In this document: positions 4,455 to 59,351 of the stretch, piece by piece
How positions within the stretch are numbered: position 1 is the stretch's first letter
How the letters are laid out: every line of letters begins with the position of its first letter
Source of the DNA: Candidatus Uhrbacteria bacterium
GTDB taxonomy: Bacteria; Patescibacteriota; Patescibacteriia; UBA9934; GWF2-40-263
DNA: 64,000 nt
Direction: 5' to 3'
Assembly: GCA_023246355.1 (NCBI GenBank)
Contig: JAHFIQ010000001.1
Location: forward strand, 17,887-81,886
Notes under the pieces: model-generated
What the model was told of the DNA's origin: nothing
Database searches by the model: none
What the model saw: the letters and a program-made list of their open reading frames with translations, nothing else
Position numbers and translations under genes: made by a program

Positions 4455-4587
4455 ACATTTTCCTTTTGACTTCGGTGGTGCATACGAGGCCCGTAAACGG
4501 GAGGAACTCGCACGCGTTGATCCACCTGTTGAATTATGGCGGGAGTATAAGGATCATCGTCGTCTGCGTCAAGCATCTTGACAATCA

Positions 4588-6517: not shown

Positions 6518-7624
6518 ATGGTACAATCAAAGGCGTCCTCTTGGACGCTTTTTATGTCTCTCACCGATCAACTCATTGCCCATCGAGCAAAACTACTCGA
6601 ACTCGAGTCCAAGCTTTCCGCTTCGGATACGCTTTCTGATCCGCGAAAACTGCGAGAGGTAAACGCGCAGTACCAAGACGAAAAAGAAATCGTCGAGATC
6701 GGCTCACGCTATGAAAAGGCGCTGACGGACCTTGCGGAAGCAAAATCCACACTCGTGGAATCAAAGGACGCCGAGTTGCTCACCCTCGTGCAGGAAGAAA
6801 TCGCTCAACTGGAACCAACGATTCCCGAGCTCGAGGCAGAGCTCACCGTCGCACTGATTCCACCGGACCCCATGGACAAAAAAAGTATCATCGTGGAAAT
6901 TCGCGCCGGCGCTGGGGGTGATGAATCGTCGCTGTTTGGGGCTGAGCTCATGAGAGCTTATTCTTTTTACGCGGAAGCACATGGATGGAAAACCGAACTT
7001 ATCTCTGCTAACCGAAGCGACGTGGGCGGATACAAGGAAGTCATTTTTGAAATCAAAGGCGTGAACGCGTACAGCCATCTCAAATATGAAAGTGGCGTGC
7101 ATCGTGTTCAGCGCGTGCCTGAAACAGAGAAAGCCGGACGTGTCCATACCTCAACCGTGACCGTGGCGATTTTGCCAGAAGTAGAAGAACTGGACATCAA
7201 AATAAAACCAGAAGATTTGAAAATCGAAGCCACGACCTCTCAAGGTGCAGGTGGCCAAAGCGTGAACACCACGTACTCCGCTGTGCGCGTGACACATCTT
7301 CCCACCGGCATCATGGTGTACTGCCAAGAGGAACGCAGCTTCAAACAAAACAAAGAGCGAGCCCTGTCGATCATTCGAGCTCGCGTGTATGCGGGTGAAC
7401 AGGAGCGGATTCAAAAAGAACGTGTCGAAGCACGGCGCGGCCAGATCGGCACGGGTGATCGCTCAGAAAAAATCCGCACCTACAATTTTCCACAGGACCG
7501 CGTAACCGATCACCGCATCCAAGAAAACTTTCACAACCTGCCAGCGATCATGAATGGACACCTTGAGCCAATCATCCTCGCCCTCAAAAAAGCCGAGGTC
7601 GCTGAACGTCTTTCAACGTCGTAA
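6518..7624 (+). CDS. prfA: peptide chain release factor 1
   Basis: GGQ motif (SQGAGGQSVNTT) and a PxT-type tripeptide (RVPETE), so RF1 rather than RF2. Confidence 0.85.
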   Translation: MVQSKASSWTLFMSLTDQLIAHRAKLLELESKLSASDTLSDPRKLREVNAQYQDEKEIVEIGSRYEKALTDLAEAKSTLVESKDAELLTLVQEEIAQLEPTIPELEAELTVALIPPDPMDKKSIIVEIRAGAGGDESSLFGAELMRAYSFYAEAHGWKTELISANRSDVGGYKEVIFEIKGVNAYSHLKYESGVHRVQRVPETEKAGRVHTSTVTVAILPEVEELDIKIKPEDLKIEATTSQGAGGQSVNTTYSAVRVTHLPTGIMVYCQEERSFKQNKERALSIIRARVYAGEQERIQKERVEARRGQIGTGDRSEKIRTYNFPQDRVTDHRIQENFHNLPAIMNGHLEPIILALKKAEVAERLSTS

Positions 7625-16167: not shown

Positions 16168-18297
<2,130 letters not shown>

Positions 18298-18329: not shown

Positions 18330-20160
18330 GGTAGAAAGCTTTGCCGAACGCGAGGTGTCGAGTTCGTCCTGAACGAATGATTCCCTGTTCGGCTCCTGAG
18401 TGACGAATCTGGTAGTGCTACAAAACGAATGAACAAGTGTCACTCTTCACTCGACGAGAGGTTCCATGTCGACCCAGTTCGACGAGGTCGACCTTGTCGA
18501 GTTCCAGTCTGACGTGGGTAGAAGTGCCTCATGGCGCTGCAATGTCTGTCAGACTTTATCAGGCGAACAACACGATGCCTTTACAGGCGTAGATCGCGGT
18601 GCCTGATTCTGTTGTGCGAGAAGTAGTTTGGCTTCGCGCCGTACCTCGGTATGCACGACTCCGATCGGACGAATCAACGGCTGTCTTCCAGCGACTTGCC
18701 CTCTGTCCGATCCAAGCTCGACGTAGCTTAGACTGTACAAAACGATCCAAGCGTTGTCGAGCAAACTGTGGACGTGTGCCTGGTTGTTTCCTACGAAGGC
18801 GTTCCTGTCCACTCAACTGCTGTACGATCCCGTGCCTGTCGAAAGACGAACCCACCGATGTACAGCACCGTCTGACGTCTATCGTGCTGACCGAGGTCGA
18901 CCAAGCCGATGTCAGACTCCCTATCGGACGACTACTACCTTGTCGAAAGACGGAGAAGAGTATGTCCAAATCTGTCGTGCGAATCCTTCGATGACCCTTG
19001 AGTCGAATCGGTCGTTGCACGACTCTTGCTGGACGATTGAACAGCTGCCTAATAGCGAGACATCGCGTGTCCAGCTTCCCGTGAACGATCACCGCAGTGC
19101 CTTCATGGCGAATGATCATGTGTTCAACACCGCTGCGCGAGTCAAGGTGTGTTGAAAGACGACTCCATGTCTGCGCAGCAACTCGAGTGACAAGCGATGG
19201 ACTGTTGAAAAACGATTCACCACGTGTCACTGACCCCATCGGGCGAAAGATGCAGTGGCGAGAGCCGCCGTGTGCTGTGCCTGATTGCAAGTGGACGAGA
19301 ACTACACTGCCCCTGGCTATCTGGCAGGTGTCAAGCCTCACTCGACGCAGGGCGACATGTCCAAACCCATCATTGAGATCAACTCGACTAGGATGGGCAA
19401 AGACGAAGTTCATGATGTCGAGTTTCCGTTGTGCGATCATCCGAATGACTTCGGTCGAAGCTACACTTGCACAACTCATGAGTGACGTATGAACGGCTGT
19501 TGAAAAACGCGTTGGCTAGTGTCACTCCTCCGCCCTTGGCTTCGGCCTTGGGTGTTTTATTTTGAACGACGTACTTGTGACCATATGGTCGAGAGTTCGT
19601 CACGTTCCAAATAGAGCGAAACATTGACATCTGTCCTCTTTCGGCGTAGTCATGAGGAGTCGGGCGTAGGAGATGTTGTTGAAAGACGACTGGTAGATGC
19701 CCGATTCTGCTGGACGATTTCGAGACTGCCATCTGGCGATCGTTGTGGTGTCCGGCTCCTGATGGACGAAGGTAGTCATGTCTTCGGACGATACTACACC
19801 TGTCCTTTTCCAGCTCGACGAATCATCCAGTGTTCACGGACGTGACGTACATTGTCGAGCCAACTCGTGGACGTGTGCCTGGTTGTTTCCAACGAAGGCG
19901 TTCCTGTCCGGTCTTGCCGAGCGAGGAGTAGCGTGTCGAAAGACGTAGGTCCATTTGCTCGGCCATCGAGTGAAGATTCGACTGATGTCGAAAGATGTTC
20001 CAGGGGATGTCACTCACTCCTTCGACGACCAGCCACGTGTCGCAAGACGATAGGCAAGGTGTCGAACAACTATCGGGCGAATCACGGACTGTCTCCGGAC
20101 GTCTGTAGAAGTGCCCGATTTCCAACCCTTGTCCCTTGGACGACCCAAGGGATTTTCTTT
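18330..20160. repeat. ORF-free ~1.8 kb region dense in degenerate short repeats centred on GACGA (TCGAAAGACGA / TGGACGA / TCGGACGA) and 43-60-nt diverged long repeats
   Basis: About 20 GACGA plus ~6 GACGT in 1.9 kb, against ~2 expected by chance. GUC-GAAA-GAC hairpins are frequent. 18768-18810 matches 19867-19909 at 42/43 nt, and the extended repeat is ~60 nt. The region is TA-depleted and CpG-rich, and no ORF has protein-like composition. Confidence 0.7.
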
Positions 20161-20296: not shown

Positions 20297-21938
20297 ATGC
20301 GTTGCATCGGCATCCGACACCGTGTCAAGCAGACCAAGGACGGCGAAGCGCGTCCCACCCAGATGGTCATGTACGAGGACGACCAGTACACGAGCTACGA
20401 GCTGGAAGACGACAACGCCGAGCTCGACTTCGTGCGAGGCCGCTTCCCGGTCGCGTTCCGAGCCATCAACGAGACCGACAACCTCACGGACTTCAGCCCG
20501 CGGCACATCAAGTGGCGCACGGTGAGGAAGGACGAGGACACGAGCAAGCTCAATGCCGCGCACACGCGCAAGGTCGAAGGCAAGCTCCAGGTCGCGACCA
20601 AGGTGCCCACGAACTACGACGGCCTCAAGTCCGGCGACGTGGTGGGCATGAGCATGGGAGGCTCGGGCGACCGATTCGCCTATGCCCTCTCCAAGGTCGG
20701 CGAGAGCGTGGGTGCGACGGTCTACCGTCTTCCGCCCTTCGAGCTCAAGCGGATGCGTGTCGTGGACGCGAAGGACGAAGACGCGAAGCTCCTCGCCATC
20801 CTCGTGCGCGATCGTCGTGGACTCTTCCACGAAACGACGGCCGTCACTCGACGCATCATCAGCGTGCGTGAGTGCCAGGCCCTGCGAATCGACGCCCCTG
20901 AAGGGTCGGATCGCCTGCGAGCAGCGCCTGCAGAAGGCGATGATCGGACGCGTGTTCTGCACCGAGGGCGATTTCGCGGAGTTGGACATCGAGGCAGCGT
21001 TTGGTGAGATCAAGGCCAACGACCGCATCTACACGGCGCTCTCGGAAGAAGAAGGACAGCGCCTGCGCGCCCTGGACGCGGCCGTGAAGGAGACGGACGT
21101 GTGGCAGGAAATCCTCGACGACGTGATGGGCATCGGGCCCGCACTCGGCGGACGGATCATCTCGGCCGTGGGCGACTTCGGTCGGTTCATGGTCGAGCCC
21201 GACCAGGCGCAGATGGACGCCCTGTACAAGGAAAGCGTCCGGCTCGAACGCGAAGGCGGCTTCAAGGAGCTGCGCCAGTTCGTCCAGGAAGGTGACAACC
21301 CCTTCCAGACGCTGCAGCGCGTCGCCTCCTGGTGCCGCGCCAACGGCCGTCCCACCGAGGCAGCGAAGCTCGCCCGCGCGGTGCAGTGCCACGAGGAGCG
21401 CTCCAAACTCCGCCGCGACGCCCGCAACAAGACCCGCGGCAAGCTCAAGGCCTTCATGGGCGTGCACCTCCAGGTGAAGATCCACTGCGCCTCCTGTGGC
21501 AAGTTCCTCTCCGAGGGAGATCTCGTCGACAAGCAGACCGGGGAATCCAGTCCGCTCTGTCCCAAGTGCGGTGCCGAGTCGATCGTGTACGAGAACGTGT
21601 TCGCCAGGCGGCGTGGCGGCTCGGTGTCCAACTGGCATCCGGACGCGCGCCAGGCGCTCTACCTGCTGGGCGACCAGTTCAACCGGCAGAGCAACCGCAC
21701 GCGCTGGGGAGCCATGCTCCTCGACTACAAGGCGAAGTTCCGCGCCAAGCACCCGCAGGAAACGGATCCGGAAACCGGAAAGTCCCGTTACAGTGACGGC
21801 CACATCCACAAGATGGCCATGTGGCGGACGCTGACCAAGTTCGTGGAGTGGCTCGCCGATCAGTGGAGCGAACTGGTTCGCCGAGAGAGGCAGGCTGCCG
21901 CAGAGGCAAAGGTCAGCAAGGCCTCCATGAGCGCCTAG
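20297..21938 (+). pseudogene. TnpB/Cas12-like RuvC + zinc-ribbon protein with a +1 frameshift at the C4 tract (~20895-20898); would be ~547 aa if repaired
   Basis: GC3 bias passes from frame 2 to frame 0 at CCCC 20895-98. Motifs present: VVGMSMGGSGDRFAYALS (RuvC-I-like with S in the D position), VWQEILDDV (RuvC-II-like), IISAVGDFGRF..LYKESV (TnpB signature between RuvC-II and the zinc finger), CASCGK...CPKCG (OrfB zinc ribbon) and HPDARQALYL (degenerate RuvC-III). Confidence 0.45.
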
Positions 21939-30400: not shown

Positions 30401-30762
30401 TTGATTACGATGCAAATGGAAATCCATCCTTCAATCTTGTTCAGTTTCTCAACAACCCTCATCCTGTCCTTGGACTTCGCGCTCAAAATTTGCTCGTAGA
30501 CAACTGGCAAGAAAGCGTAGCGGCGAATTACGTCCTAAACCAAGAACTGCAAATCGCTGGTCCAGTCTATCTCATGAACGAAGCGCTCAAAGAGCTTAAG
30601 GCCGCTGGGCATGAAAATTCTGCTGAGTCAAAATTTCTTACTCAGCAACTGGGTGAATATTTGAGAGCCAGAGCAGACGTCTTGGATGGAAACAATCCGA
30701 TCGTAAAAGAGGCGGCAACAGCCGCAGGAATCTACACGGAAGTCTTTGCGAGCAACCCCTAG
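27424..30762 (+). CDS. large hypothetical protein (1112 aa) with Pro/Ala/Thr-rich disordered N-terminal region
   Basis: Long low-complexity P/A/T segment of ~250 aa, then predicted TM helices, a coiled coil and a globular C-terminal domain. Confidence 0.6.
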   Translation: MKLPPPQREPGTGPNPSGERAPVTRSVPRAAKSEPAPTAAEAAASTSVATPEATPAQLETKKKKATPRKKAIVPTAASPTTPAESESTREAPPRIVDVHAPLPAEFTEDKFSEAAKLVITEAKAGSSNPDFIADISIDVVTDLLSDRLGLDRTGCLLMQRALEDRGVIGHKTFGVARKVLVDVWPPLGSSQASSPDSAPPTSTPVPGTPSPTVPVRRARLSSLPSRDPAPGAVVTPAAAPDAAPTTPPPDPTATGPVAPPRRAPRLTMPGARPAAASEAAPVASTPPEAPPSAATPEAAPSTPATPPEAVPAAAAATAPAEAGPAAARTTPEAPKGIFDSFTSGLRSAADRFMARFRGEVTAQDERDYKPTGADVTKGIAAGLMSVVASYTGIKIVADLPEWLTQKYFTSQERSRIKAALKAKETELDRAGAGDALEAKKLHLEESINASKFLTKEKKVQLIKELKDVIETRNAGVLLARDKRDQEIAKLLDQAIQSRIKNTQVLKETLNSALMVTGLAAMRGAAYGAVALWERRARLMQDERFKAGKIARGLDPQPNFINDLIIGGMQDTWKQLKGGGAETKAGKAVNFVQGLTIVMRAAGFAELAISEILQEGGPSSMIEASLKAWEEKGAGQAALDNIKAPWERIGSLFGRASEAVGGAPETAPGSGTDSGDTGTDTSGAGADSGADNTSPAQSNPDGSPSPEAGAGAPTSETVEYTESDIETGTVHKDDGIIEILQRQGMSAKAALAAAREAGIVRPGGDTRLATESIGRISILAYETDGHQVIVFHDTQTGNDLSLDQARAQGFTYEHGSGAPAVSETAVADHDAGASLEPAPDVEGSAEIPHTFVDGKITLNPIEGGFNVDTNPSSLSIDQVHGMGDLDAIGTAATAEIPAQQEIVNTLSQRIASELTILEKLDKQGLGNNPEAQYVKMLLRNDLFLANSRPGTFKVGELLYMKQQSDAYDVDKLIAVAEADRINDVRIPGLGKVEFDYDANGNPSFNLVQFLNNPHPVLGLRAQNLLVDNWQESVAANYVLNQELQIAGPVYLMNEALKELKAAGHENSAESKFLTQQLGEYLRARADVLDGNNPIVKEAATAAGIYTEVFASNP

Positions 30763-31268
30763 ATTCGATAGTGCAGCAACACACTCTGTTCATTGAGCTT
30801 GGTCACTTCGATCAAGCTCATTTGAATTCGATCAAACCCTTGGGCAAGTGGAATGCCGCTGCCAAACAAAATCGGCTCGATCGTGAGATACATGTCTGTC
30901 ACAAGTCCTGCTTGGAGAAACTGGCTATACACCGATGAACCACCACCAATGACAAGCTGGGTTACACCTTCTGATGCAAGATCCTGAACGAGATCTTTTG
31001 GATTTTGGTTTCTGAACTCCACCTCACCACCTTTTCCACCTAATCCACCTTTTCCACCCGTCTCACTGAGCACAATCAGCCTCCTTCCCTTCAGCGGCTT
31101 GCCAATGGTCTCAAACGTCCGGCGACCCATCACGACCACACCTGCTTCTTTTGTTTTGGCCACAAAAAAAGCCGTGTCTTCTTTTGACGTCCAATCAAGC
31201 GAACGTTGATTGGGAGACTGTGCAATCTTTCCGTCTGCGGAAATCGCGGCCACGAGAATCACCTTCAT
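30759..31268 (-). CDS. folA: dihydrofolate reductase family protein (DHFR/RibD_C-like) with in-frame GGKGGLGGKGG insertion
   Basis: MKVILVAAISADGKIA...VMGRRTFETIG...LIVLS; overlaps the thyA stop. The insertion is encoded by a TCCACCT 9-nt repeat. Confidence 0.7.
   Translation of the reverse strand: MKVILVAAISADGKIAQSPNQRSLDWTSKEDTAFFVAKTKEAGVVVMGRRTFETIGKPLKGRRLIVLSETGGKGGLGGKGGEVEFRNQNPKDLVQDLASEGVTQLVIGGGSSVYSQFLQAGLVTDMYLTIEPILFGSGIPLAQGFDRIQMSLIEVTKLNEQSVLLHYRI
31022..31059. repeat. TCCACCT micro-array, locus C, inserted in-frame inside folA
   Basis: caccaccttttccacctaatccaccttttccaccc on the plus strand encodes GGKGGLGGKGG on the minus strand. Confidence 0.7.
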
Positions 31269-31270
31269 AT

Positions 31271-32110
31271 CTAATACACGTTCACTGTAATTTTTAGATT
31301 CTCAATCGGCTCCATGGGCTGATATTGACTCTTTAGCTGCTGAAAAATCTCATCGACCAATGTGCCATCGCCTTGCGTCGCGCGGTGAAACGCTCCCTCA
31401 GGAACCACGAGTCTTACAGGAACATGCTCGTGATCACGATTCACAATCTCTCTGGCGCCATCAAAATGGTTGTCGTAAATATGCGCGTTGCTGATCGAAT
31501 GCGTGTAGATGCCAGGCTCAACGCCGAGCCGCTCGGCAAGCAGGCACTGGAGCAGGGCAAACCCAGCCGCATCATGCGGACAGCCGAGAATCATGTCGTT
31601 GCTGCGCACGATATTGTGCAAGTGAAGTTTCCCGCCAGCAATATTCACCGTGAACGAGTAGGGACAAGGGAGATTTTTTTTGGTGTCTACCGCAAGCCCG
31701 TCATCCGCTGGATCCCATGTCACAACCACGGCGTGACGCGAGTGAGGATTTTGGGTGAGATGATCGATGAGGCTCATAATTTGATCGCGACCAAAATGAT
31801 GTCTCCACCGGTATCCGTAGGCCGCCTTCACTGTCCCGTCCTCTTCTAAAAAGTCATCCCAAATTTTGGTGTAGGTACGCAGCCAGTCTGGTCGATTTTC
31901 TCCCATGAGATACCACACCTGCTCAGCCACAAACAGCTTCAGAGGAATTTTACGCAGCGTCAACAAGGGAAACGATTCTGAAACGTCCACGCGCAGGGTA
32001 ACACCAGGAAGCATCTTGGTCGTTCGTCCAGACCAAGGATTGGGGATCTCATAGCCGTGATCCATGATGTCAGCGATGGCGTTTCGATATTGGACGTCAA
32101 AGGGTGTCAT
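31271..32110 (-). CDS. thyA: thymidylate synthase
   Basis: 279 aa with ThyA motifs (LPPCH-like CPYSF region, RRHxxS-like, W..DP). Confidence 0.9.
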   Translation of the reverse strand: MTPFDVQYRNAIADIMDHGYEIPNPWSGRTTKMLPGVTLRVDVSESFPLLTLRKIPLKLFVAEQVWYLMGENRPDWLRTYTKIWDDFLEEDGTVKAAYGYRWRHHFGRDQIMSLIDHLTQNPHSRHAVVVTWDPADDGLAVDTKKNLPCPYSFTVNIAGGKLHLHNIVRSNDMILGCPHDAAGFALLQCLLAERLGVEPGIYTHSISNAHIYDNHFDGAREIVNRDHEHVPVRLVVPEGAFHRATQGDGTLVDEIFQQLKSQYQPMEPIENLKITVNVY

Positions 32111-34689: not shown

Positions 34690-36219
34690 ATGAAATACGA
34701 ACCGATTATCGGACTTGAAATTCACGTGCAGCTGAAAACGAAAACAAAGATGTTTTGTGGTTGCGCTGCTCACGACCAAGGCGTTCCACCAAACACGAAC
34801 GTCTGCCCAATTTGTCTGGGACACCCTGGCGTTTTGCCTGTGCCAAACGAGGCGGCTATTCGCTATGGGGTGCTCATGGGCCTCGCTCTCAACTGCACCA
34901 TTGCCGCGCATTCAAAATTCGACCGCAAGAATTATTTTTATCCTGACCTTCCCAAGGCGTACCAAATTTCCCAGTACGACTTGCCCATTGCGATCAACGG
35001 CTCGGTTGAAATTGATGTTCCCGGTGGGGAGCGTGAGCATGTCACCATTGGCATCACCCGAGCTCACTTGGAAGAAGACGCAGCCAAATCGTTTCACACA
35101 CATGACGGCAGTACGTGCGTTGATTTTAATCGTGGAGGCACGCCGCTTGTGGAAATCGTCACCGAGCCTGATTTTCGTTCGTCCAAGGAAGCCAAAGTCT
35201 TCCTGCAGGAGCTTCGACTGATCGCCCGCTACTTGGGAGTGTCCGACGCAGACATGGAAAAAGGTCACCTACGCTGTGATGCAAACGTGTCGCTTCGACG
35301 ACTTGATGAAAAAGGCGATGTGGTCGGTGAACGTTTCAATCCAAAAACAGAAGTCAAAAACCTGAACTCGTTCCGCCATGTCGAACGGGCGATTGAGTTT
35401 GAAATTGCTCGTCAAACGCATTTGTGGGAATCAGACACGCCGCCGCTTATCTCAACCACTCGCGGATGGAACGACACACGCGGCATCACCGAGGAACAGC
35501 GCTCCAAAGAAGAAGCCGCGGATTATCGTTACTTTCCGGAGCCTGACATTCCACCTCTGGCGCTCACCGAAATTGCCGACGAGATGCGCATGAAGCTGCC
35601 TGAATTGCCCTCTGCGCGACGAGTTCGATTCGCAACAGAGTACGGACTCAAACCCTCCGACGCACGCCAAATCTGTGATGATCCAGCGCTCGCTGATTTT
35701 GTGGAAGCGGTCTTCTCTGAGCTTGACTCGTGGCTACGTGCTCTGCCAGAAATGGAAGGACTGGACGAGGAGGCTCTCATCAAAGAACGTGGCAAGCTTG
35801 CCAACCTTGTCTCTGGCTGGCTTCTGTCAAAACTCATGGGCCTCATGATGGATCGCGGGATTGATATCCGCACGAGCAAAATCTCTCCAGAAAACTTTGC
35901 CGAATTCATCACGCTCATCGCGAGCCGCAAAATCAACAACACCACTGGCCTCACGATTCTCTCCTCCATGCTCGACAATGGCGACGACCCATCACATATC
36001 ATGGAAGACAAGCAGCTTGGACGCATGGATGACGCAAGTGAACTTGCTGAAATCGTGAGTCGTGTCCTTGCGGAAAATCCGGCGGAAGTCCTGCGCTACC
36101 AAGCAGGCGAAGAACAGCTGCTCAAATTGTTCATCGGTCTTGTCATGAAATCCACAGAAGGCACAGCCGACGCTGCCCTCACAAAAAATATCTTGCTGGT
36201 GAAGCTCAAAGCTGAATAA
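34690..36219 (+). CDS. gatB: aspartyl/glutamyl-tRNA amidotransferase subunit B
   Basis: Internal Met MKYEPIIGLEIHVQL...; GatB catalytic and YqeY-like tail. Confidence 0.9.
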   Translation: MKYEPIIGLEIHVQLKTKTKMFCGCAAHDQGVPPNTNVCPICLGHPGVLPVPNEAAIRYGVLMGLALNCTIAAHSKFDRKNYFYPDLPKAYQISQYDLPIAINGSVEIDVPGGEREHVTIGITRAHLEEDAAKSFHTHDGSTCVDFNRGGTPLVEIVTEPDFRSSKEAKVFLQELRLIARYLGVSDADMEKGHLRCDANVSLRRLDEKGDVVGERFNPKTEVKNLNSFRHVERAIEFEIARQTHLWESDTPPLISTTRGWNDTRGITEEQRSKEEAADYRYFPEPDIPPLALTEIADEMRMKLPELPSARRVRFATEYGLKPSDARQICDDPALADFVEAVFSELDSWLRALPEMEGLDEEALIKERGKLANLVSGWLLSKLMGLMMDRGIDIRTSKISPENFAEFITLIASRKINNTTGLTILSSMLDNGDDPSHIMEDKQLGRMDDASELAEIVSRVLAENPAEVLRYQAGEEQLLKLFIGLVMKSTEGTADAALTKNILLVKLKAE

Positions 36220-37078
36220 AGTCTTGCACCTTTTTTTCAGCTTCTGCTACATCTGCCACCCAGACAATCCTCGGATCCCGTTTGAACCACGTCATCTGAC
36301 GTTTGGCATAATCACGGGTGTCTTTTTTTATGTCCTCAATCACCTCTTCAAGGTTCTGTTCCCCTGAAAGAAAGCGACAGAGTTGCCGATAACCGATCCC
36401 AGTCATAGATTCAACATCGCAGCCATATCGATCTCCGAGGAAACGAACTTCCTCAACAAGTCCGTTTTGAATCATCTCATCAACACGCTTGTTGATCCTC
36501 TCGTTCAATTCCTGCCGTGGAACCAACAAGCCAATCTGTAACACATCAAACGGCGATGCTCCTTTTGTTTGTTGCTGACTCCATGGCTTTCCCGTGCGTT
36601 TTGTGACTTCCAGAGCACGGACCACACGGCGTTTATTCTGTGCGTCGATCATCTGCGCGCCTTCAGGGTCCAACGCCTGATACTCTTGAAATAGATCATC
36701 GAGTGCTCGCGCTTCGAGCTGTTCACGCATGACAGGATCACGTGCTGTATTTGTCAGGTCAAGATCATCAATGATCGCTCGCAGCCACAGTCCTGTGCCA
36801 CCGACAAAGATGGGCAGATGACCGCGGTTTAAAATTTCATGGGTCTTATTGGTCACATAGGTCTTATGATCTGCGACCGAGTACTGATGATCCGGATCCA
36901 CAAGATCGATGCCCCATTGCGCATCTTTGGTCTTGGCTGTTCCAATATCCATGCCCCGATACACCTGACGTGAATCAACGGAAATCAACTCGCCATGAAA
37001 CCGCTTGGCAAGCTCAAGGGCGAGGGTTGTTTTTCCTGAAGCCGTGGGTCCAACGATAGCGAGGATCTTTGGCTTCAT
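36206..37078 (-). CDS. miaA: tRNA dimethylallyltransferase
   Basis: Internal Met MKPKILAIVGPTASGKT (P-loop); 4-nt overlap with miaB. Confidence 0.85.
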   Translation of the reverse strand: MKPKILAIVGPTASGKTTLALELAKRFHGELISVDSRQVYRGMDIGTAKTKDAQWGIDLVDPDHQYSVADHKTYVTNKTHEILNRGHLPIFVGGTGLWLRAIIDDLDLTNTARDPVMREQLEARALDDLFQEYQALDPEGAQMIDAQNKRRVVRALEVTKRTGKPWSQQQTKGASPFDVLQIGLLVPRQELNERINKRVDEMIQNGLVEEVRFLGDRYGCDVESMTGIGYRQLCRFLSGEQNLEEVIEDIKKDTRDYAKRQMTWFKRDPRIVWVADVAEAEKKVQDFIQL

Positions 37079-38457
37079 AGTTTTTCCCCTTCCAAAATCC
37101 ACATGTCTGCTTTTGTAACTCTCACGTTCACGATCTTGCCGACAGAATCAGGAGTCCCAGGAAACCGCACCAGTTTCATCTCTCGAGAATTCCCATAGCA
37201 AAATCCTGGCTGTGTCATCATCGATTCTCGAATCTTCTCAGGCATGACCAGCATCTCGTCAGTGATCTTAGGTGGCTCATGACGATCGACCAACACCGAA
37301 ACCTCCTTGCCGAGATACGTCTGATTTTTTTCCTTCACGATTCTCTCCTGGAGCTCTTGCAACACATTCCATCGATGTTTCTTTTCCTCCAGGCTCACAT
37401 CATCTTTGAATGCCTTTGCTGCGGCTGTGCCTGACCGAACAGAGTATCGAGCCGTGTAGGAAATATCAAAACGAACCTGCTCATACAAGGCTACCGTTTT
37501 TTGAAATTGTTCTGGAGTCTCACCTGCAAATCCCACAATGATATCTGTGCCAATGGCGATGTGAGGAATCTTTGCGCGAAGACGGTCAACCACATCCAGA
37601 TACTGTGCAGCCGTGTAGCGTCGGTTCATTCGACGCAGAACTTCGTCGTCGCCTGACTGTACAGGAAGATGGATAAAATTGAGGTGAGCCGGAAGGGTCA
37701 TGGCATCGATCACCTCGTCGGTCATGTGAAGTGGATGTGGAGCCGTGAAATGCAGACGTGAGATCCCTTTGATTTGATTGACCTCCCAGAGCAACGCAGC
37801 GAAATGATCCTTGTACGGATTTTCTGTTGAAAAATGCTCAGGATCTGGTGCGCGGTAACTATTCACGGTCTGACCAAGCAGCGTAACTTCCGCGCAGCCA
37901 TGCAACGCTAATTCACGAATCTCCTCTACAATATCCTGACACGGTCGATTCTTCTCAAGTCCTCTGGAAAACGGAACCACGCAGTACGTACAAAACTTAT
38001 TACAGCCAGTTTGGATCGAGACAAACGCCTGGACATGGCTGTGATACTCAGGATGAACCTTCAAATAATCATCGAGTGTGTCCGTGCTATTCACGAGCTC
38101 CGGTCTCAACTCCCCCAACCAACGTGGGAGCTGTCCCATATCCTTGGTGGGAAAATACAGATCCACCATCGGGAGTCGTTTACGAAGCGCCCCATGTCGA
38201 TCCCGTCCTGGCATGCAACCCGTCACGCCGATGATCAACTCTCCCCGTTGCTCCTTGAGCGGTTGAAGTGAATGAATCAAACTAAACACGCGGTCTTCAG
38301 CACTCTGCCGCACAGAACAGGTGTTCACCAATATCACGTCCGCGGTTTGCTGATTCTCTGTCGACTCCAAACCAACGCCTTTCAAAATCGTCTCCATGCG
38401 CTCAGAGTCGCTTTTGTTCATCTGACAGCCGTAGGTGATGAGATGATAGGAAGGCAT
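37075..38457 (-). CDS. miaB: tRNA-2-methylthio-N6-dimethylallyladenosine synthase (radical SAM methylthiotransferase)
   Basis: UPF0004 N-domain (YGCQMN), radical SAM CxxxCxxC (CNKFCTYC) and a TRAM C-terminus. Confidence 0.9.
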   Translation of the reverse strand: MPSYHLITYGCQMNKSDSERMETILKGVGLESTENQQTADVILVNTCSVRQSAEDRVFSLIHSLQPLKEQRGELIIGVTGCMPGRDRHGALRKRLPMVDLYFPTKDMGQLPRWLGELRPELVNSTDTLDDYLKVHPEYHSHVQAFVSIQTGCNKFCTYCVVPFSRGLEKNRPCQDIVEEIRELALHGCAEVTLLGQTVNSYRAPDPEHFSTENPYKDHFAALLWEVNQIKGISRLHFTAPHPLHMTDEVIDAMTLPAHLNFIHLPVQSGDDEVLRRMNRRYTAAQYLDVVDRLRAKIPHIAIGTDIIVGFAGETPEQFQKTVALYEQVRFDISYTARYSVRSGTAAAKAFKDDVSLEEKKHRWNVLQELQERIVKEKNQTYLGKEVSVLVDRHEPPKITDEMLVMPEKIRESMMTQPGFCYGNSREMKLVRFPGTPDSVGKIVNVRVTKADMWILEGEKL

Positions 38458-38500
38458 AGGATTCTCATTTTACAACCTACAACCTACTCCCTACTGCCTA

Positions 38501-55877: not shown

Positions 55878-56759
55878 ATGTACTCCCAAATCGACGCCAA
55901 CAAACGCAAGACCTGGCTGCTCATTTCACTCTTTACAATTGTGATCGTGGGATTGGGTTGGTTCTTTGGTGAATACACAGGCGCTGGCAACGTCGGCATT
56001 ATCGTGGCTGTGCTTCTGGCAACGTTCATGAACCTGACGGGATACTTCTGGGGCGACAAGGTGGCGCTCGCGTCCTCAGGCTCAAAAGAAATTCAAAAAA
56101 CGGACAACCCACGTCTCTACCGCATGGTGGAAAACCTCGCCATCACCTCGGGCATGGCCATGCCAAAAGTCTATGTGATGAACGATCCCTCTGCCAACGC
56201 CTTTGCCACAGGACGGGATCCGGAACACGCTTCTGTCTCGGTGACCACAGGGCTTTTGGACATCATGGACGACAATGAATTGGAAGGCGTCCTTGCCCAC
56301 GAACTGTCACATGTTAAAAACTACGACATCCGCGTGATGACCATCGTCATCGTGCTCGTGGGTATCGTGCTGCTCCTCTCGGATATTCTGATGCGCACCA
56401 TGTTCTGGGGTGGTCGCGATCGCGACAATCGTGGAGGCGGCATCCTCTTGATCATTGGGCTCGTGCTGGCGATCCTGTCTCCGTTTTTTGCCGAGCTCAT
56501 CAAACTCGCTGTCTCACGCTCTCGTGAATACTTGGCCGATGCCTCTGGCGCCATGCTCACGCGCTATCCGGAAGGCTTGGCAAAGGCGCTTGAAAAAATT
56601 GCCCTTCATGATCGTCCTCTTAAACGCGCCAACCACGCCACGGCCCATCTGTTCCTCGCCAATCCCTTCGATCCTCATGTCACAAAAAAGTTTGAACAGC
56701 TGTTTTCCACACATCCACCGATCGAGGAGAGGATTGCGAAGTTGAGAACGATGATATAA
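55878..56759 (+). CDS. htpX: protease HtpX (M48 zinc metalloprotease)
   Basis: HELSHV zinc motif; 4 TM helices; the lemA-htpX pairing. Confidence 0.85.
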   Translation: MYSQIDANKRKTWLLISLFTIVIVGLGWFFGEYTGAGNVGIIVAVLLATFMNLTGYFWGDKVALASSGSKEIQKTDNPRLYRMVENLAITSGMAMPKVYVMNDPSANAFATGRDPEHASVSVTTGLLDIMDDNELEGVLAHELSHVKNYDIRVMTIVIVLVGIVLLLSDILMRTMFWGGRDRDNRGGGILLIIGLVLAILSPFFAELIKLAVSRSREYLADASGAMLTRYPEGLAKALEKIALHDRPLKRANHATAHLFLANPFDPHVTKKFEQLFSTHPPIEERIAKLRTMI

Positions 56760-56855
56760 AGGTGGAATAGGTGGACAAGGTAGACAAGGTGATCCCCGAC
56801 TCCGAACTCCGAGCACCTTTTCCACCACATCCACCTTCCCACCTCTTCCACCTTC
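56760..56855. repeat. TCCACCT micro-array, locus D (AGGTGGA arm then CCACCT x4 ending 3 nt before the clpC ATG)
   Basis: aggtggaataggtggacaaggtagacaaggtga ... ttttccaccacatccaccttcccacctcttccacctt. Confidence 0.75.
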
Positions 56856-56858
56856 CTT

Positions 56859-59351
56859 ATGCCTCAGGACATCGTCGACAAATTTTCTTCCCACTTGAAA
56901 AACGTCCTCACTCGAGCGCTGTGTTTGGTTGTGGAAACAGATCAGAAAGCCATCCACCCAGAACATCTCTTGTGGGCTATGGGAACACAAAAAGGCTGTA
57001 TCGGCGCAGAGATTCTAAAAAAATCTGGAGTGAAGCTCGTGGAGCTGAAAAAATTGGCCGGTGTGAGACAGGTCGTTCATCCACTGACAGCTGGCAGTGA
57101 TCTCTCCCTCCATCTTTCACAAGACGCCAAACGCATGGTGGAAAAAGCGGTACTCACGGCCAACATGTATGGCCACCGCTATGTAGGAACGGAACATTTG
57201 CTCTCGGGCATCCTTCAAATTGAAAGCCCGACCACACAACAATTTTTCCATGAGCAGAACACGGACATGAAAGAGCTGCGTTCACAACTCGCGATCGTTC
57301 TCAAAAGCACCTCCCGATTTCCAGATCTCACCGAAGCTCCCAAAGGCGGACAAGCAGTTGTGGCACAACCTGGCGCCCAGACAAAAGAGACAGGACAACC
57401 ACAAGAGAAAAAAATTTCCGCGGTGGAATATTTTAGTGTGGAACTCACCACAAAGGAAGCTCAGAAACGGATCGATCCGGTGATTGGTCGCGACAGGGAG
57501 ATAGAACGACTCATGGAAATTTTGTGCCGTCGCACAAAAAACAATCCTCTCCTGCAAGGTGAACCAGGCGTTGGCAAAACAGCGATCGTCGAGGGTCTTG
57601 CCAAAAAAATCACGCAAGGGGATGTCCCGCCCGTCCTGGCTCACAAACGCATTTTTGCTCTCGACATGGCGCTCGTGGTCGCTGGCACCATGTACCGAGG
57701 CGAATTCGAAGGACGACTCCGCCAAATCGTTGATGAAGTTAAACAAGACCCTGAGATGATTTTATTTATCGACGAAATTCACTCCATCGTCGGTGCGGGT
57801 TCTGCCTCAGGCTCTCTGGACGCGGCGAATATTTTGAAGCCGGCCCTTGCGCGCGGCGAAATTCGTTGCATCGGTGCCACCACGCCTGGAGAGTTCAAAA
57901 AATACATCGAAAGCGACAGTGCTCTGGAGAGACGATTCCAATCGGTCTATGTCGAAGAACCCAGCCGTGAAAAAACCATTGAGATCCTCGAAGGCGTGGC
58001 TCCCCACTTTGAACAGTTTCATCGTGTACGAATTTCTCACGAAGCCATTCGCGAGGCAGTGAATCTCTCCGAACGCTACATCCAAGATCGCCAGCTCCCA
58101 GACAAGGCGATTGATCTGATCGACGAAGCCGCTGCTGCCACGCGTGTCCGCGATACCCATCCCGCTCCGTTACAAAAAGAACGCGCCCTCTTTGATGCCC
58201 TCGACCAGGTCAAAGAACTCAAACGCCAGGCGGTCGTGGAAGAACGATTCTTCGAGGCCATGGAACTCAAAGCCCAGGAGGACCGCACCCAAGCCCATTT
58301 GGCCTCGTTGCGCATTGAAGAGGATACGTCTCCCATCCCTGTGATCACCGAGCAGGACATTGCTCGCGTTGTTTCACGTGCCACGGGTATTCCACTGGAT
58401 GGAATCTTGGAACAGGACTTGAGCGAGCTCATGCGCCTTGAAGATAAGATGCGTGCTTCCGTGCTTGGCCAAGACGAAGCGCTGAGCATCGTTGCTGGAG
58501 CCCTGCGACGAGCCAAAGCTGGCATGGCTCATCCCAAACGCCCGCTCGCATCGTTTTTGTTCTTGGGACCTTCCGGTGTCGGAAAAACAGAACTGGCCAA
58601 AACCGTTGCCGACCTGTTGTTCCACTCCAAAAATAATTTCATCAGACTGGACATGTCCGAGTACTCAGAAGCCTTCACGATGTCCAAACTCATCGGCGCC
58701 CCGGCTGGATACATCGGATACAAAGAAACATCAAACCTCACCGATCGTGTGAAGCAACGACCCTACTCCGTTGTGCTTTTTGATGAAATCGAAAAAGCCC
58801 ATCGCGATGTGCAGAACCTGCTTTTGCAAATCCTCGAGGAAGGTGAACTCGCCGACGCCACGGGTCGCACGGTCAATTTCAAAAATACGGTAATTATCTT
58901 AACCAGCAATGTCGGACTTGAGCGCTTTGAACAAGGCGAGATGGGATTCATGGGAAGCGATGGCGATCGCACCATCACCCTCAACGCTGATCTCCAAAAA
59001 GAACTCGCTGAGCGCTTTCGCCCGGAACTCTTAAATCGTCTGGACCACACTTGCGTGTTCAAACTTCTCACACCAGAGACACTCACAGCCATTGCCAACA
59101 AACAACTTGAGGAACTCGTGAGCCGCCTCAAAGAACAAGGCCTCACACTCACCATCCACGAGAGCGTCGCCGCCCACCTCGCCAAACAGGCCGATGCAAA
59201 ATCCGGCGCCCGCCAGTTGAGATCCCTCATCCAAAAAGACATTGAACACAAAATTGCGGAACAATTGAGCCAGAAACATCGACCTCGAGCGTTTAACATT
59301 AAACTCAAAAACAAAAACATCGTCGTCACAAAAAACTATGCCAACACGTGA
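56859..59351 (+). CDS. clpC: ATP-dependent Clp protease ATP-binding subunit ClpC-like (class I Clp/Hsp100)
   Basis: Clp_N repeats and two AAA+ modules ([15 protein letters not shown]; [12 protein letters not shown]), with a short M-domain. Confidence 0.85.

Follow-up and report, generated by a model that had tools for sequence, protein, structure and literature searches.

The closest described counterparts of the arrangement reported here are the Rickettsia palindromic elements (RPEs), a dispersed noncoding family with copies that also lie in frame in housekeeping genes (Ogata et al. 2000, via PMC10969869). In the part of that account (PMC10969869) that concerns them, RPEs are about 100-150 bp long, palindromic and of the miniature inverted-repeat transposable element (MITE) type, and each has its own conserved peptide. 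ERIC, BOX and MITE repeats, which are intergenic and hairpin forming, occasionally occur in open reading frames (ORFs) as translational fusions (PMC10969869). Here, we describe an array of 9-nt repeats that lies in frame within folA, the dihydrofolate reductase (DHFR) gene, in a 64,000-nt stretch of Candidatus Uhrbacteria DNA (contig JAHFIQ010000001.1). We refer to this stretch as the window and give positions within it unless a locus is named. In our reading, which we consider likely, a clade-specific family of AGGTGGAnn nonamer arrays supplied a single arm to a permissive DHFR loop in an ancestor shared by two species, and this arm was later remodelled.

We concluded that an in-frame capture of a repeat, resembling those of RPEs, is real. 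As far as RPEs are described in that account, the likeness lies in the fold-compatible, in-frame addition of a peptide that spares the host protein, in a small, reduced genome. The folA insert differs in being 36-45 nt long, in consisting of 9-nt tandem units, and in forming one arm with no palindrome. Moreover, its units are read in different frames by the two sister species, and one loop of one enzyme has been struck repeatedly. By the same comparison, hairpin elements found in relatives (at locus L015 and others) are nearer to RPEs than the window array is. ERIC, BOX and MITE repeats are bounded by defined ends or terminal inverted repeats and usually exceed 100 bp, whereas the nonamer family forms arrays of variable unit number with a strict polarity toward start codons, in which neither terminal repeats nor target duplications were identified. 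In the literature that we searched on repeats and MITEs in Patescibacteria and the candidate phyla radiation, and on insertions in the DHFR CD loop, we found no description of such a capture, and the only precedents were RPEs and MITEs.

The array and the genes around it are as follows.

30759..31268, minus strand: folA, encoding DHFR of the Thermotoga maritima type (169 aa), the host of the array.
31018..31059, sense on the minus strand: the folA solo array, five AGGTGGA-type units, 42 nt, in frame.
31271..32110, minus strand: thyA, encoding thymidylate synthase (identified with Pfam), directly upstream of folA in the same orientation.

The sense-strand sequence of the array is G GGTGGAAAA GGTGGATTA GGTGGAAAA GGTGGTGA GGTGGAG, with a unit spacing of 9-9-9-8; the plus-strand letters from 31027 to 31059 are ccaccttttccacctaatccaccttttccaccc. 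The translation of the ORF at 30759..31268 contains RRLIVLSETGGKGGLGGKGGEVEFRNQ. A preliminary description of this DNA had claimed that a TCCACCT-type repeat lies in frame within folA and encodes GGKGGLGGKGG, and both the letters and the minus-strand translation agree with it: positions 31026-31058 encode residues G71-G81, and the final unit of the array consists of native E-V-E codons. It had also claimed that the 9-nt period keeps the reading frame. The frame is indeed intact, but one unit is 8 nt long and shifts it, from GGT-GGA-AAA to the native GAG-GTG-GAG-TTC (E-V-E-F). Hence, the frame is preserved by the net length of the array, which is +18 nt relative to the nearest insert-free relatives, and not by the period alone.

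The two highest Tandem Repeats Finder (TRF) scores in the window both belong to the folA array (68 for a period of 18 nt and 2.3 copies; 50 for a period of 9 nt and 3.6 copies). TCCACCT occurs 26 times in the window, against 7.4 occurrences expected, and this count was reached in 0 of 100 shuffled sequences. We defined a chain as at least three AGGTGGA-like units spaced 8-10 nt apart. The window contains exactly eight chains (six intergenic arms, one in folA and one in gyrB), and none were found in 50 shuffles. Rfam families had no match anywhere in the window.

Short tandem repeats that are shared between loci can mislead short-read assemblers, and an insert of this kind could arise as an assembly or sequencing artefact, for example from reads misjoined at the repeat. 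However, an identical DHFR protein is present on 12 contigs from several assemblies of the window species (P0001, five contigs; P0121, seven contigs), and a 120-kb contig from the European Nucleotide Archive (ENA) is 100% identical to the window across 6495 nt, which makes an assembly artefact very unlikely. Together with the intact frame, the confident fold described below and the recovery of the sister-species allele from four separate contigs (L001, L002, L010 and L090), these data reduce the chance of an artefact to a negligible one.

The folA product matched the Pfam families DHFR_1 (PF00186; 59.1 bits, with a cutoff of 25) and RibD_C (63.9 bits, with a cutoff of 24.1). Its closest solved relative is T. 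maritima DHFR (1cz3; phmmer E = 1.8e-25), and an AlphaFold (AF2) model aligned with 1cz3_A in Foldseek with a template modelling (TM) score of 0.88, a root mean square deviation of 2.0 and E = 7.9e-19. The mean predicted local distance difference test (pLDDT) score of the model was 92.8, and the sole low part was residues 71-80 (mean, 51). Modelling of the loop had been proposed as a check; it placed the insert, G71-G81, as a low-confidence protrusion between two strands (residues 63-67 and 81-86) of an otherwise confident fold. In HMMER alignments, the insert stands opposite SSQPGTD------ERVTW of an enterobacterial DHFR (Yersinia pestis, 3q1h) and RRPK----TSNNPSL of T. maritima DHFR. Model and alignment thus agree with the earlier statement that the insert occupies a loop where canonical DHFRs have a short turn, for which SSQPGTDDRV of Escherichia coli had been quoted. 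As in the canonical loop (E. coli residues ~64-71), the insert follows the strand that ends in IVLS and precedes VEF. We take the loop to be the CD loop of the adenosine-binding subdomain, E. coli residues ~63-71.

The active-site residues of DHFR are a Trp, a catalytic acidic residue five positions further on and then a Phe; W26, D31 and F34/F35 of the folA product are invariant in 56 homologues, and their spacing matches that of W22/D27/F31 of E. coli. With the ORF intact, the fold confident and W26, D31 and F35 conserved, the repeat appears to have left the coding region undisrupted, as the preliminary description had stated. tmk lies near thyA-folA and is divergent from thyA; the thyA-folA arrangement recurs in relatives. 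The enzyme is expected to remain functional, because the modelled site is a solvent-exposed, tolerant loop and the purine-rich orientation of the array encodes a flexible, hydrophilic linker, and the linkage to thyA and tmk is consistent with NADPH-dependent dihydrofolate reduction. To judge from the model and from residue conservation, the Gly/Lys linker itself is probably neutral.

The intergenic arrays of the window form three inverted pairs, each consisting of three or four AGGTGGAnn units, a spacer and three or four nnTCCACCT units.

22064..22125, plus strand: intergenic pair, AGGTGGA arm 22064-22088, TCCACCT arm 22101-22125, hairpin z = -6.4.
26654..26780, no strand assigned: intergenic pair between divergent genes, AGGTGGA arm 26654-26687, TCCACCT arm 26756-26780, hairpin z = -5.1.
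56760..56853, plus strand: intergenic pair, AGGTGGA arm 56760-56784, TCCACCT arm 56821-56853 (spacing, 9-8-9), hairpin z = -4.0.

The TCCACCT arm of the first pair stops 2 nt short of the ATG at 22128, whose product is SecE-like by eye and by its position before nusG. In the second pair, the TCCACCT orientation appears on each flanking gene's own sense strand, just upstream of its ATG. The third pair fills the space between a stop codon at 56759 and an ATG at 56859, and its neighbours are HtpX-like and Clp-like by eye. We defined membership in the family as at least three tandem AGGTGGA units (at most one mismatch) at a spacing of 9 nt, occasionally 8 nt, and the folA array is a member. Like the intergenic arms, it is built on the AGGTGGA heptamer at a 9-nt period with an occasional 8-nt unit, and it matches the three intergenic elements exactly over 14 nt (at 22063), 14 nt (at 26750) and 13 nt (at 56814); no such matches were found in 30 shuffles. 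The folA copy departs from the family in its placement, being intragenic and carrying the AGGTGGA orientation on the sense strand. No inverted partner arm was found within folA or nearby, so that the array is a solo arm, and RNA folding of its sense strand gave no structure (z = 0.17, compared with -4.0 to -6.4 for the intergenic pairs).

The choice of Gly codons in the folA array is also that of the repeat. The array uses GGT GGA three times and then GGT GGT, so that seven of eight codons fit a GGT-GGA alternation. Genome-wide Gly codon usage is 0.23 for GGT, 0.29 for GGA, 0.32 for GGC and 0.16 for GGG, which by simple arithmetic gives a probability of ~1.6e-5 for the array pattern. That improbability points to a DNA repeat and not to a selected peptide. 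The core, the period, the 13- to 14-nt exact matches and the Gly codons together support the earlier proposal that the intergenic repeat family reaches into a coding region.

We surveyed one locus from each of 80 related species and scanned 83 loci (1.29 Mb) for arrays and hairpins. Arrays were present in only 6 of the 83 loci; the intergenic copies of relatives are as follows.

L003:2268-2347, 7138-7231, 17553-17594 and 19880-19902: intergenic arrays.
L010:3294-3326: intergenic array.
L015:13681-13767: intergenic array.

Their positions in L003, L010 and L015 are not orthologous, and the copies are multiple and dispersed (eight arrays in the 64-kb window). The polarity of the intergenic copies is strict and is the same throughout, in the window as in L003, L010 and L015. 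When the gene that follows is read along its sense strand, a stop codon comes first, then the AGGTGGA arm, a spacer and the TCCACCT arm, and the start codon stands about 0-40 nt further on (0-20 nt in the window).

The DHFR homologues came from sources named Candidatus Uhrbacteria or Patescibacteria. Among 120 homologues, an array at the folA site was found in the sister species only (P0002; loci L001, L002, L010 and L090), whose DHFR is about 86% identical to that of the window overall and 91% identical outside the loop. The sister array has six units, GGTGGAAAA GGTGGTGA GGTGGATGA GGTAGATAA GGTGGCCCA GGTGGAG, in the order 9-8-9-9-9. The 5' junction and the first codons, GGT GGA AAA GGT GG, are the same in the two species. 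The 8-nt unit stands second in the sister, so that its later units read EVDEVDKVAQ, and its loop protein, GGKGGEVDEVDKVAQ, is partly read in another frame than the window loop. Two frames are thus used for the same units within the sister, as expected of a DNA-level repeat and not of a selected peptide. The two alleles differ by whole-unit insertions and deletions (net, 9 nt) and by the moved 8-nt unit. The order of the sister units (GGTGGA, GGTGGT, GGTGGA, GGTAGA, GGTGG..) mirrors that of the intergenic arm at L003:17553-17594, and the sister array has a 16-nt exact string in common with an intergenic array on its own contig.

We built a neighbor-joining (NJ) tree of 79 sequences, from 78 surveyed species and the window. 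The window and P0002 are sisters in this tree, and the outgroups P0006, P0008 and P0009 have a short ETPGxVEG loop (P0006, 81% identity; P0009/L011, 75%; P0008/L013, 73%). The codons of this loop, GAA ACG CCA GGA GCG GTG GAA GGC GTC GAG (ETPGAVEG), provide six codons where the window has twelve. No arrays were found in 11 kb of the insert-free loci L005, L006 and L013. The orthologue alignment suggested in the preliminary description therefore shows a lineage-specific insertion, with arrays only in the window and sister species and short loops in the next relatives. As a refutation, the same description had named distant relatives that encode this Gly-Lys loop with unrelated codons; the 120 homologues included no such case, and the sister uses the same codons.

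These comparisons bear on the idea that a flexible Gly/Lys loop was selected at the protein level, for cofactor binding, dynamics or partner binding, with the DNA periodicity as a by-product. The loop belongs to the adenosine-binding subdomain, and variation in its length is common in the family. However, the codon choice is far from genome usage, the sister peptide differs (EVDEVDKVAQ), the peptides of other lineages are unrelated and AF2 gives low confidence to the segment. We consider protein-level adaptation highly improbable.

In coding minisatellites and contingency loci, tandem repeats whose unit length is a multiple of 3 lie in frame. The folA array resembles coding minisatellites in its period divisible by three and in copy-number differences between lineages that keep the frame. 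Unlike contingency loci, it shows no variation within species, its host is a housekeeping gene and not a surface or phase-variable one, its units are shared with intergenic DNA, and one unit is 8 nt long. No polymorphism in unit number was detected within either species among cluster members or in a flank-anchored, variable-gap metagenome scan, which returned only the two known alleles. Loops are identical within P0001/P0121 (12 contigs) and within P0002/P0122/P0123/P0124 (5 contigs) and L090; the single metagenome match likewise had an identical loop. Hence, we dropped the possibility of a contingency or phase-variable locus. The preliminary description had called the repeat mobile or expansion-prone at the DNA level. 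Unit-level insertions and deletions between the species fit this description; with no polymorphism within either species, "expansion-prone" holds only on an evolutionary time scale.

Our favoured account of the folA array is a capture followed by remodelling. To judge from the phylogeny, the ancestor shared by the window and sister species would have taken an arm into the coding part of its DHFR gene, in place of about 6 codons of a short ancestral loop, E-T-P-G-x-V-E-G, between two beta strands. The likeliest route would be illegitimate recombination, gene conversion or slipped-strand copying, probably seeded by GGTGGA-like strings in native Val-Glu codons (GCG GTG GAA GGC ... GTG GAG). Comparison of the two species shows that whole units were then gained and lost and the 8-nt unit was relocated, and that only net lengths that keep the frame survived, under selection for the frame. 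The array would persist as a flexible, hydrophilic Gly/Lys (or Glu/Val/Asp) linker because the site appears to be a loop of the adenosine-binding subdomain that is exposed to solvent and structurally tolerant.

Several observations weigh against this account. There is no partner arm, no target-site duplication was found at the junctions in an alignment of the window, L010 and L013, and no transposase was found in the 64 kb available; active transposition is therefore not shown. The array does not vary among the contigs available for either species (12 from the window species, and 5 along with L090 from the sister), so that there is no sign of ongoing instability. Insert-free relatives already hold native GGTGGA-like codons, which leaves room for a purely local expansion. 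Finally, the window and sister arrays represent one event. Since the window and L010 share this event, the co-occurrence of folA and intergenic arrays is not statistically independent, and we did not use it as a test.

A local expansion would mean that slippage enlarged a native GGTGGA stretch in place, making a minisatellite whose likeness to the intergenic arrays reflects a shared seed or mutational bias. Insert-free relatives have GCG GTG GAA GGC and GTG/GTC GAG at this position, the 18-nt TRF period with 2.3 copies is typical of local duplication, and a purely local 16-nt tandem duplication is present in the same loop at L009. However, the native seed has the frame G-GTG-GA, yet most units read GGT-GGA. 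In addition, the core, the period and the 8-nt variant equal those of the intergenic arms, exact matches extend over 13-16 nt, and the sister unit order matches that of an intergenic arm; TRF found no 9-nt minisatellite of any other sequence in the window. A purely local origin is therefore, in our view, unlikely. For the capture itself, transposition, recombination and slippage on native GGTGGA-like codons cannot be told apart.

The L009 duplication lies at L009:10205-10255, in the folA loop of P0050. The loop, GGGKVEKWEGGEVKERG, derives from a tandem duplication of a 16-nt unit, AAGGTGGAGAAGTGGG AAGGTGGAGAAGTGAAA, and because of this unit length the two copies are translated in different frames.

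Inserts in this loop are not confined to the two species with arrays. Measured from RRLIVLS to VEF, the segment most often comprises 21 residues and at most 49. The loop itself comprises about 8 residues in canonical DHFR, about 10 in T. maritima DHFR, 14 in the window, 17 in the sister and up to ~38 in other Uhrbacteria. Expanded loops were found in 26 of the 79 species, for which the NJ tree requires no fewer than 13 changes of state. Loop peptides of other lineages, such as PLLFKEGLGVV, PPLTKGGQGG and RWEGGEVKENG, are unrelated.

At least eight species, plus L003, have a perfect 9- to 10-bp hairpin in the loop, CCCCTCCTT-loop-AAGGAGGGG or variants with paired changes that keep the stem perfect (CCCCTCC/GGAGGGG, CCCCCCC/GGGGGGG and CCTCCCC/GGGGAGG). 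These hairpins encode peptides such as PLLFKEGLGVV and PPLTKGGQGG. They are 21 nt long, lie inside elements of ~49 nt and require at least six gains or losses on the tree. At L015, the 49-nt element in the folA loop is identical at 47 of 49 positions to the reverse complement of an intergenic copy 6.5 kb away, which is direct evidence that a second small element entered the same loop. The place and orientation of the element in the loop differ between lineages. As judged from these comparisons, the DHFR loop has gained repeat-derived inserts several times in related species and is either permissive or insert-prone.

In all, 22 perfect C/T-G/A hairpins were found in the 83 loci, 10 of them in the DHFR loop; three further hairpins adjoin folA, one 12 nt ahead of the ATG and two shortly past the stop codon. 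Where the encoded residue is conserved, 11/12 to 16/17 of the hairpin-element codons (92-94%) are identical between species, compared with 52-58% elsewhere in folA (Fisher P = 0.003-0.014). Such identity implies recent spread, gene conversion or selection at the nucleotide level. It could be that the embedded array and the hairpins of relatives retain a function as nucleic acid, for instance as a binding site for a factor that recognises the intergenic arrays, or as a Shine-Dalgarno (SD)-like ribosome-pausing signal or an RNA-structure signal that tunes thyA-folA expression; selection and not tolerance would then account for their recurrence in this loop. The clustering of hairpins in and beside one loop, the codon identity and the stems kept perfect by paired changes all favour such a function. 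However, 53 of the 79 species have no insert, the window array has neither a partner arm nor a predicted structure, and element position and orientation vary between lineages. Recent insertion or gene conversion, as for the 47/49 copy in L015, also explains the conservation, and the window genes appear to use no SD sequences. We regard a retained nucleic-acid function as improbable. In a broader version, the DHFR loop after IVLS in Uhrbacteria would be a recurrent landing site, targeted or selected, of both nonamer arrays and bipartite hairpins (with perfect stems and arms like the SD sequence and its complement), whose copies are under nucleotide-level constraint as thyA-folA signals (RNA hairpin, SD-like pause site or protein-binding array). 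We think this version doubtful.

The hairpins belong to a second repeat family of bipartite elements, [GGGGGTTA..TAACCACCCC]-TnA-[CCCCTCCTT-loop-AAGGAGGGG], with the following copies.

L003:9929-9989: bipartite hairpin element.
L015:12141-12190: bipartite hairpin element.
L077:10518-10578: bipartite hairpin element.
L065:4180-4240: bipartite hairpin element.
L046:10516-10538: bipartite hairpin element.
L058:7393-7476: bipartite hairpin element.

In L003 and L077, the SD-like 3' arm stops 6-12 nt upstream of a start codon, and the element looks like an SD-sequestering hairpin. We rejected an internal translation start past the SD-like arm: L015 and L018 have an in-frame GTG, but L003, L051, L022 and L081 do not.

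Proteins other than DHFR also contain in-frame copies of the hairpin elements: for example, MiaA has FPPPSLRRGLGGG and SPSPARGRVGEGG (L081:3827-3850 and 4511-4532), a 541-aa ORF has PPPAKEGPGEV (L073:12461-12480) and a 241-aa ORF has PPLTPPPYEEGNRG (L062:12178-12200). Peptide inserts that derive from repeats may therefore be a general feature of Uhrbacteria. The window ORF at 36206..37102 (minus strand) has homologues in L009 and L003 that are annotated as miaA. MiaA of the window and of L003 is without a segment of ~30 residues, WVESEIEKGGSINQLFGARKTFLVEGVPH, that most other Uhrbacteria have (e.g., L009:3707-4672), and a hairpin insert in L081 stands at the site of the missing segment. An array in L009 miaA was considered as an insertion and rejected, as it aligns with the ancestral segment of other species.

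The eighth chain of the window is a possible second coding copy of the nonamer array.

18002..18044, plus strand: stretch within gyrB, five 9-nt units, AGGTCGATG AAGTGGACA AGGTGGAAG AGGTGGCTG AGGGGGA.

It falls in the hypervariable acidic linker of gyrB (16258..18297). In the GyrB proteins of 35 Uhrbacteria, the linker is unrelated and of similar or greater length, and we rejected the stretch as a clear second insertion, keeping it only as a possible one. The L003 gyrB (20300-20531) is annotated as encoding 1109 aa with an intein-splicing domain; the window gyrB encodes 679 aa and no intein.

Another short tandem repeat, GTAGGTTG TAGGTTGT (TRF period 7, TACAACC), occupies 38458-38487, just upstream of the start of a minus-strand ORF at 37075..38457. 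This ORF occupies the position that miaB, beside miaA, has in L003, where the orthologue has an AGGTGGA/TCCACCT array. Almost none of ~55 predicted window genes (e.g., those at 16258, 43588, 9054 and 61709) have an SD sequence, and TATAAT/TATACT-like boxes stand ~8-15 nt ahead of many window ATGs. Together, these sequence features suggest that the mRNAs of this organism are leaderless or have very short leaders. On the other side of folA, a large Pro/Ala-rich ORF (27424..30762, plus strand) is convergent with folA, and its stop overlaps that of folA by 4 nt. It encodes 1112 aa by the longest-ORF call and 760 aa by the ENA gene call; homologues at the equivalent position have 750-1175 aa, some with weak FtsK_gamma matches.

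The folA array and the hairpins of its relatives are a warning to annotators: in Patescibacteria proteins, a low-complexity segment that is Gly-rich or of the "PPLxKGG" kind can be repeat derived. The arrays and hairpins represent two uncharacterised intergenic element families with strict start-codon polarity, in a genome apparently without SD-led initiation. Inserts that range from 6 to about 30 residues in length are tolerated by one DHFR loop, or attracted to it, which is useful for protein engineering and for understanding the origins of indels in enzymes. The folA array itself provides a phylogenetically dated case, in a bacterium of the candidate phyla radiation, in which noncoding repeat DNA has become protein sequence of an essential enzyme.

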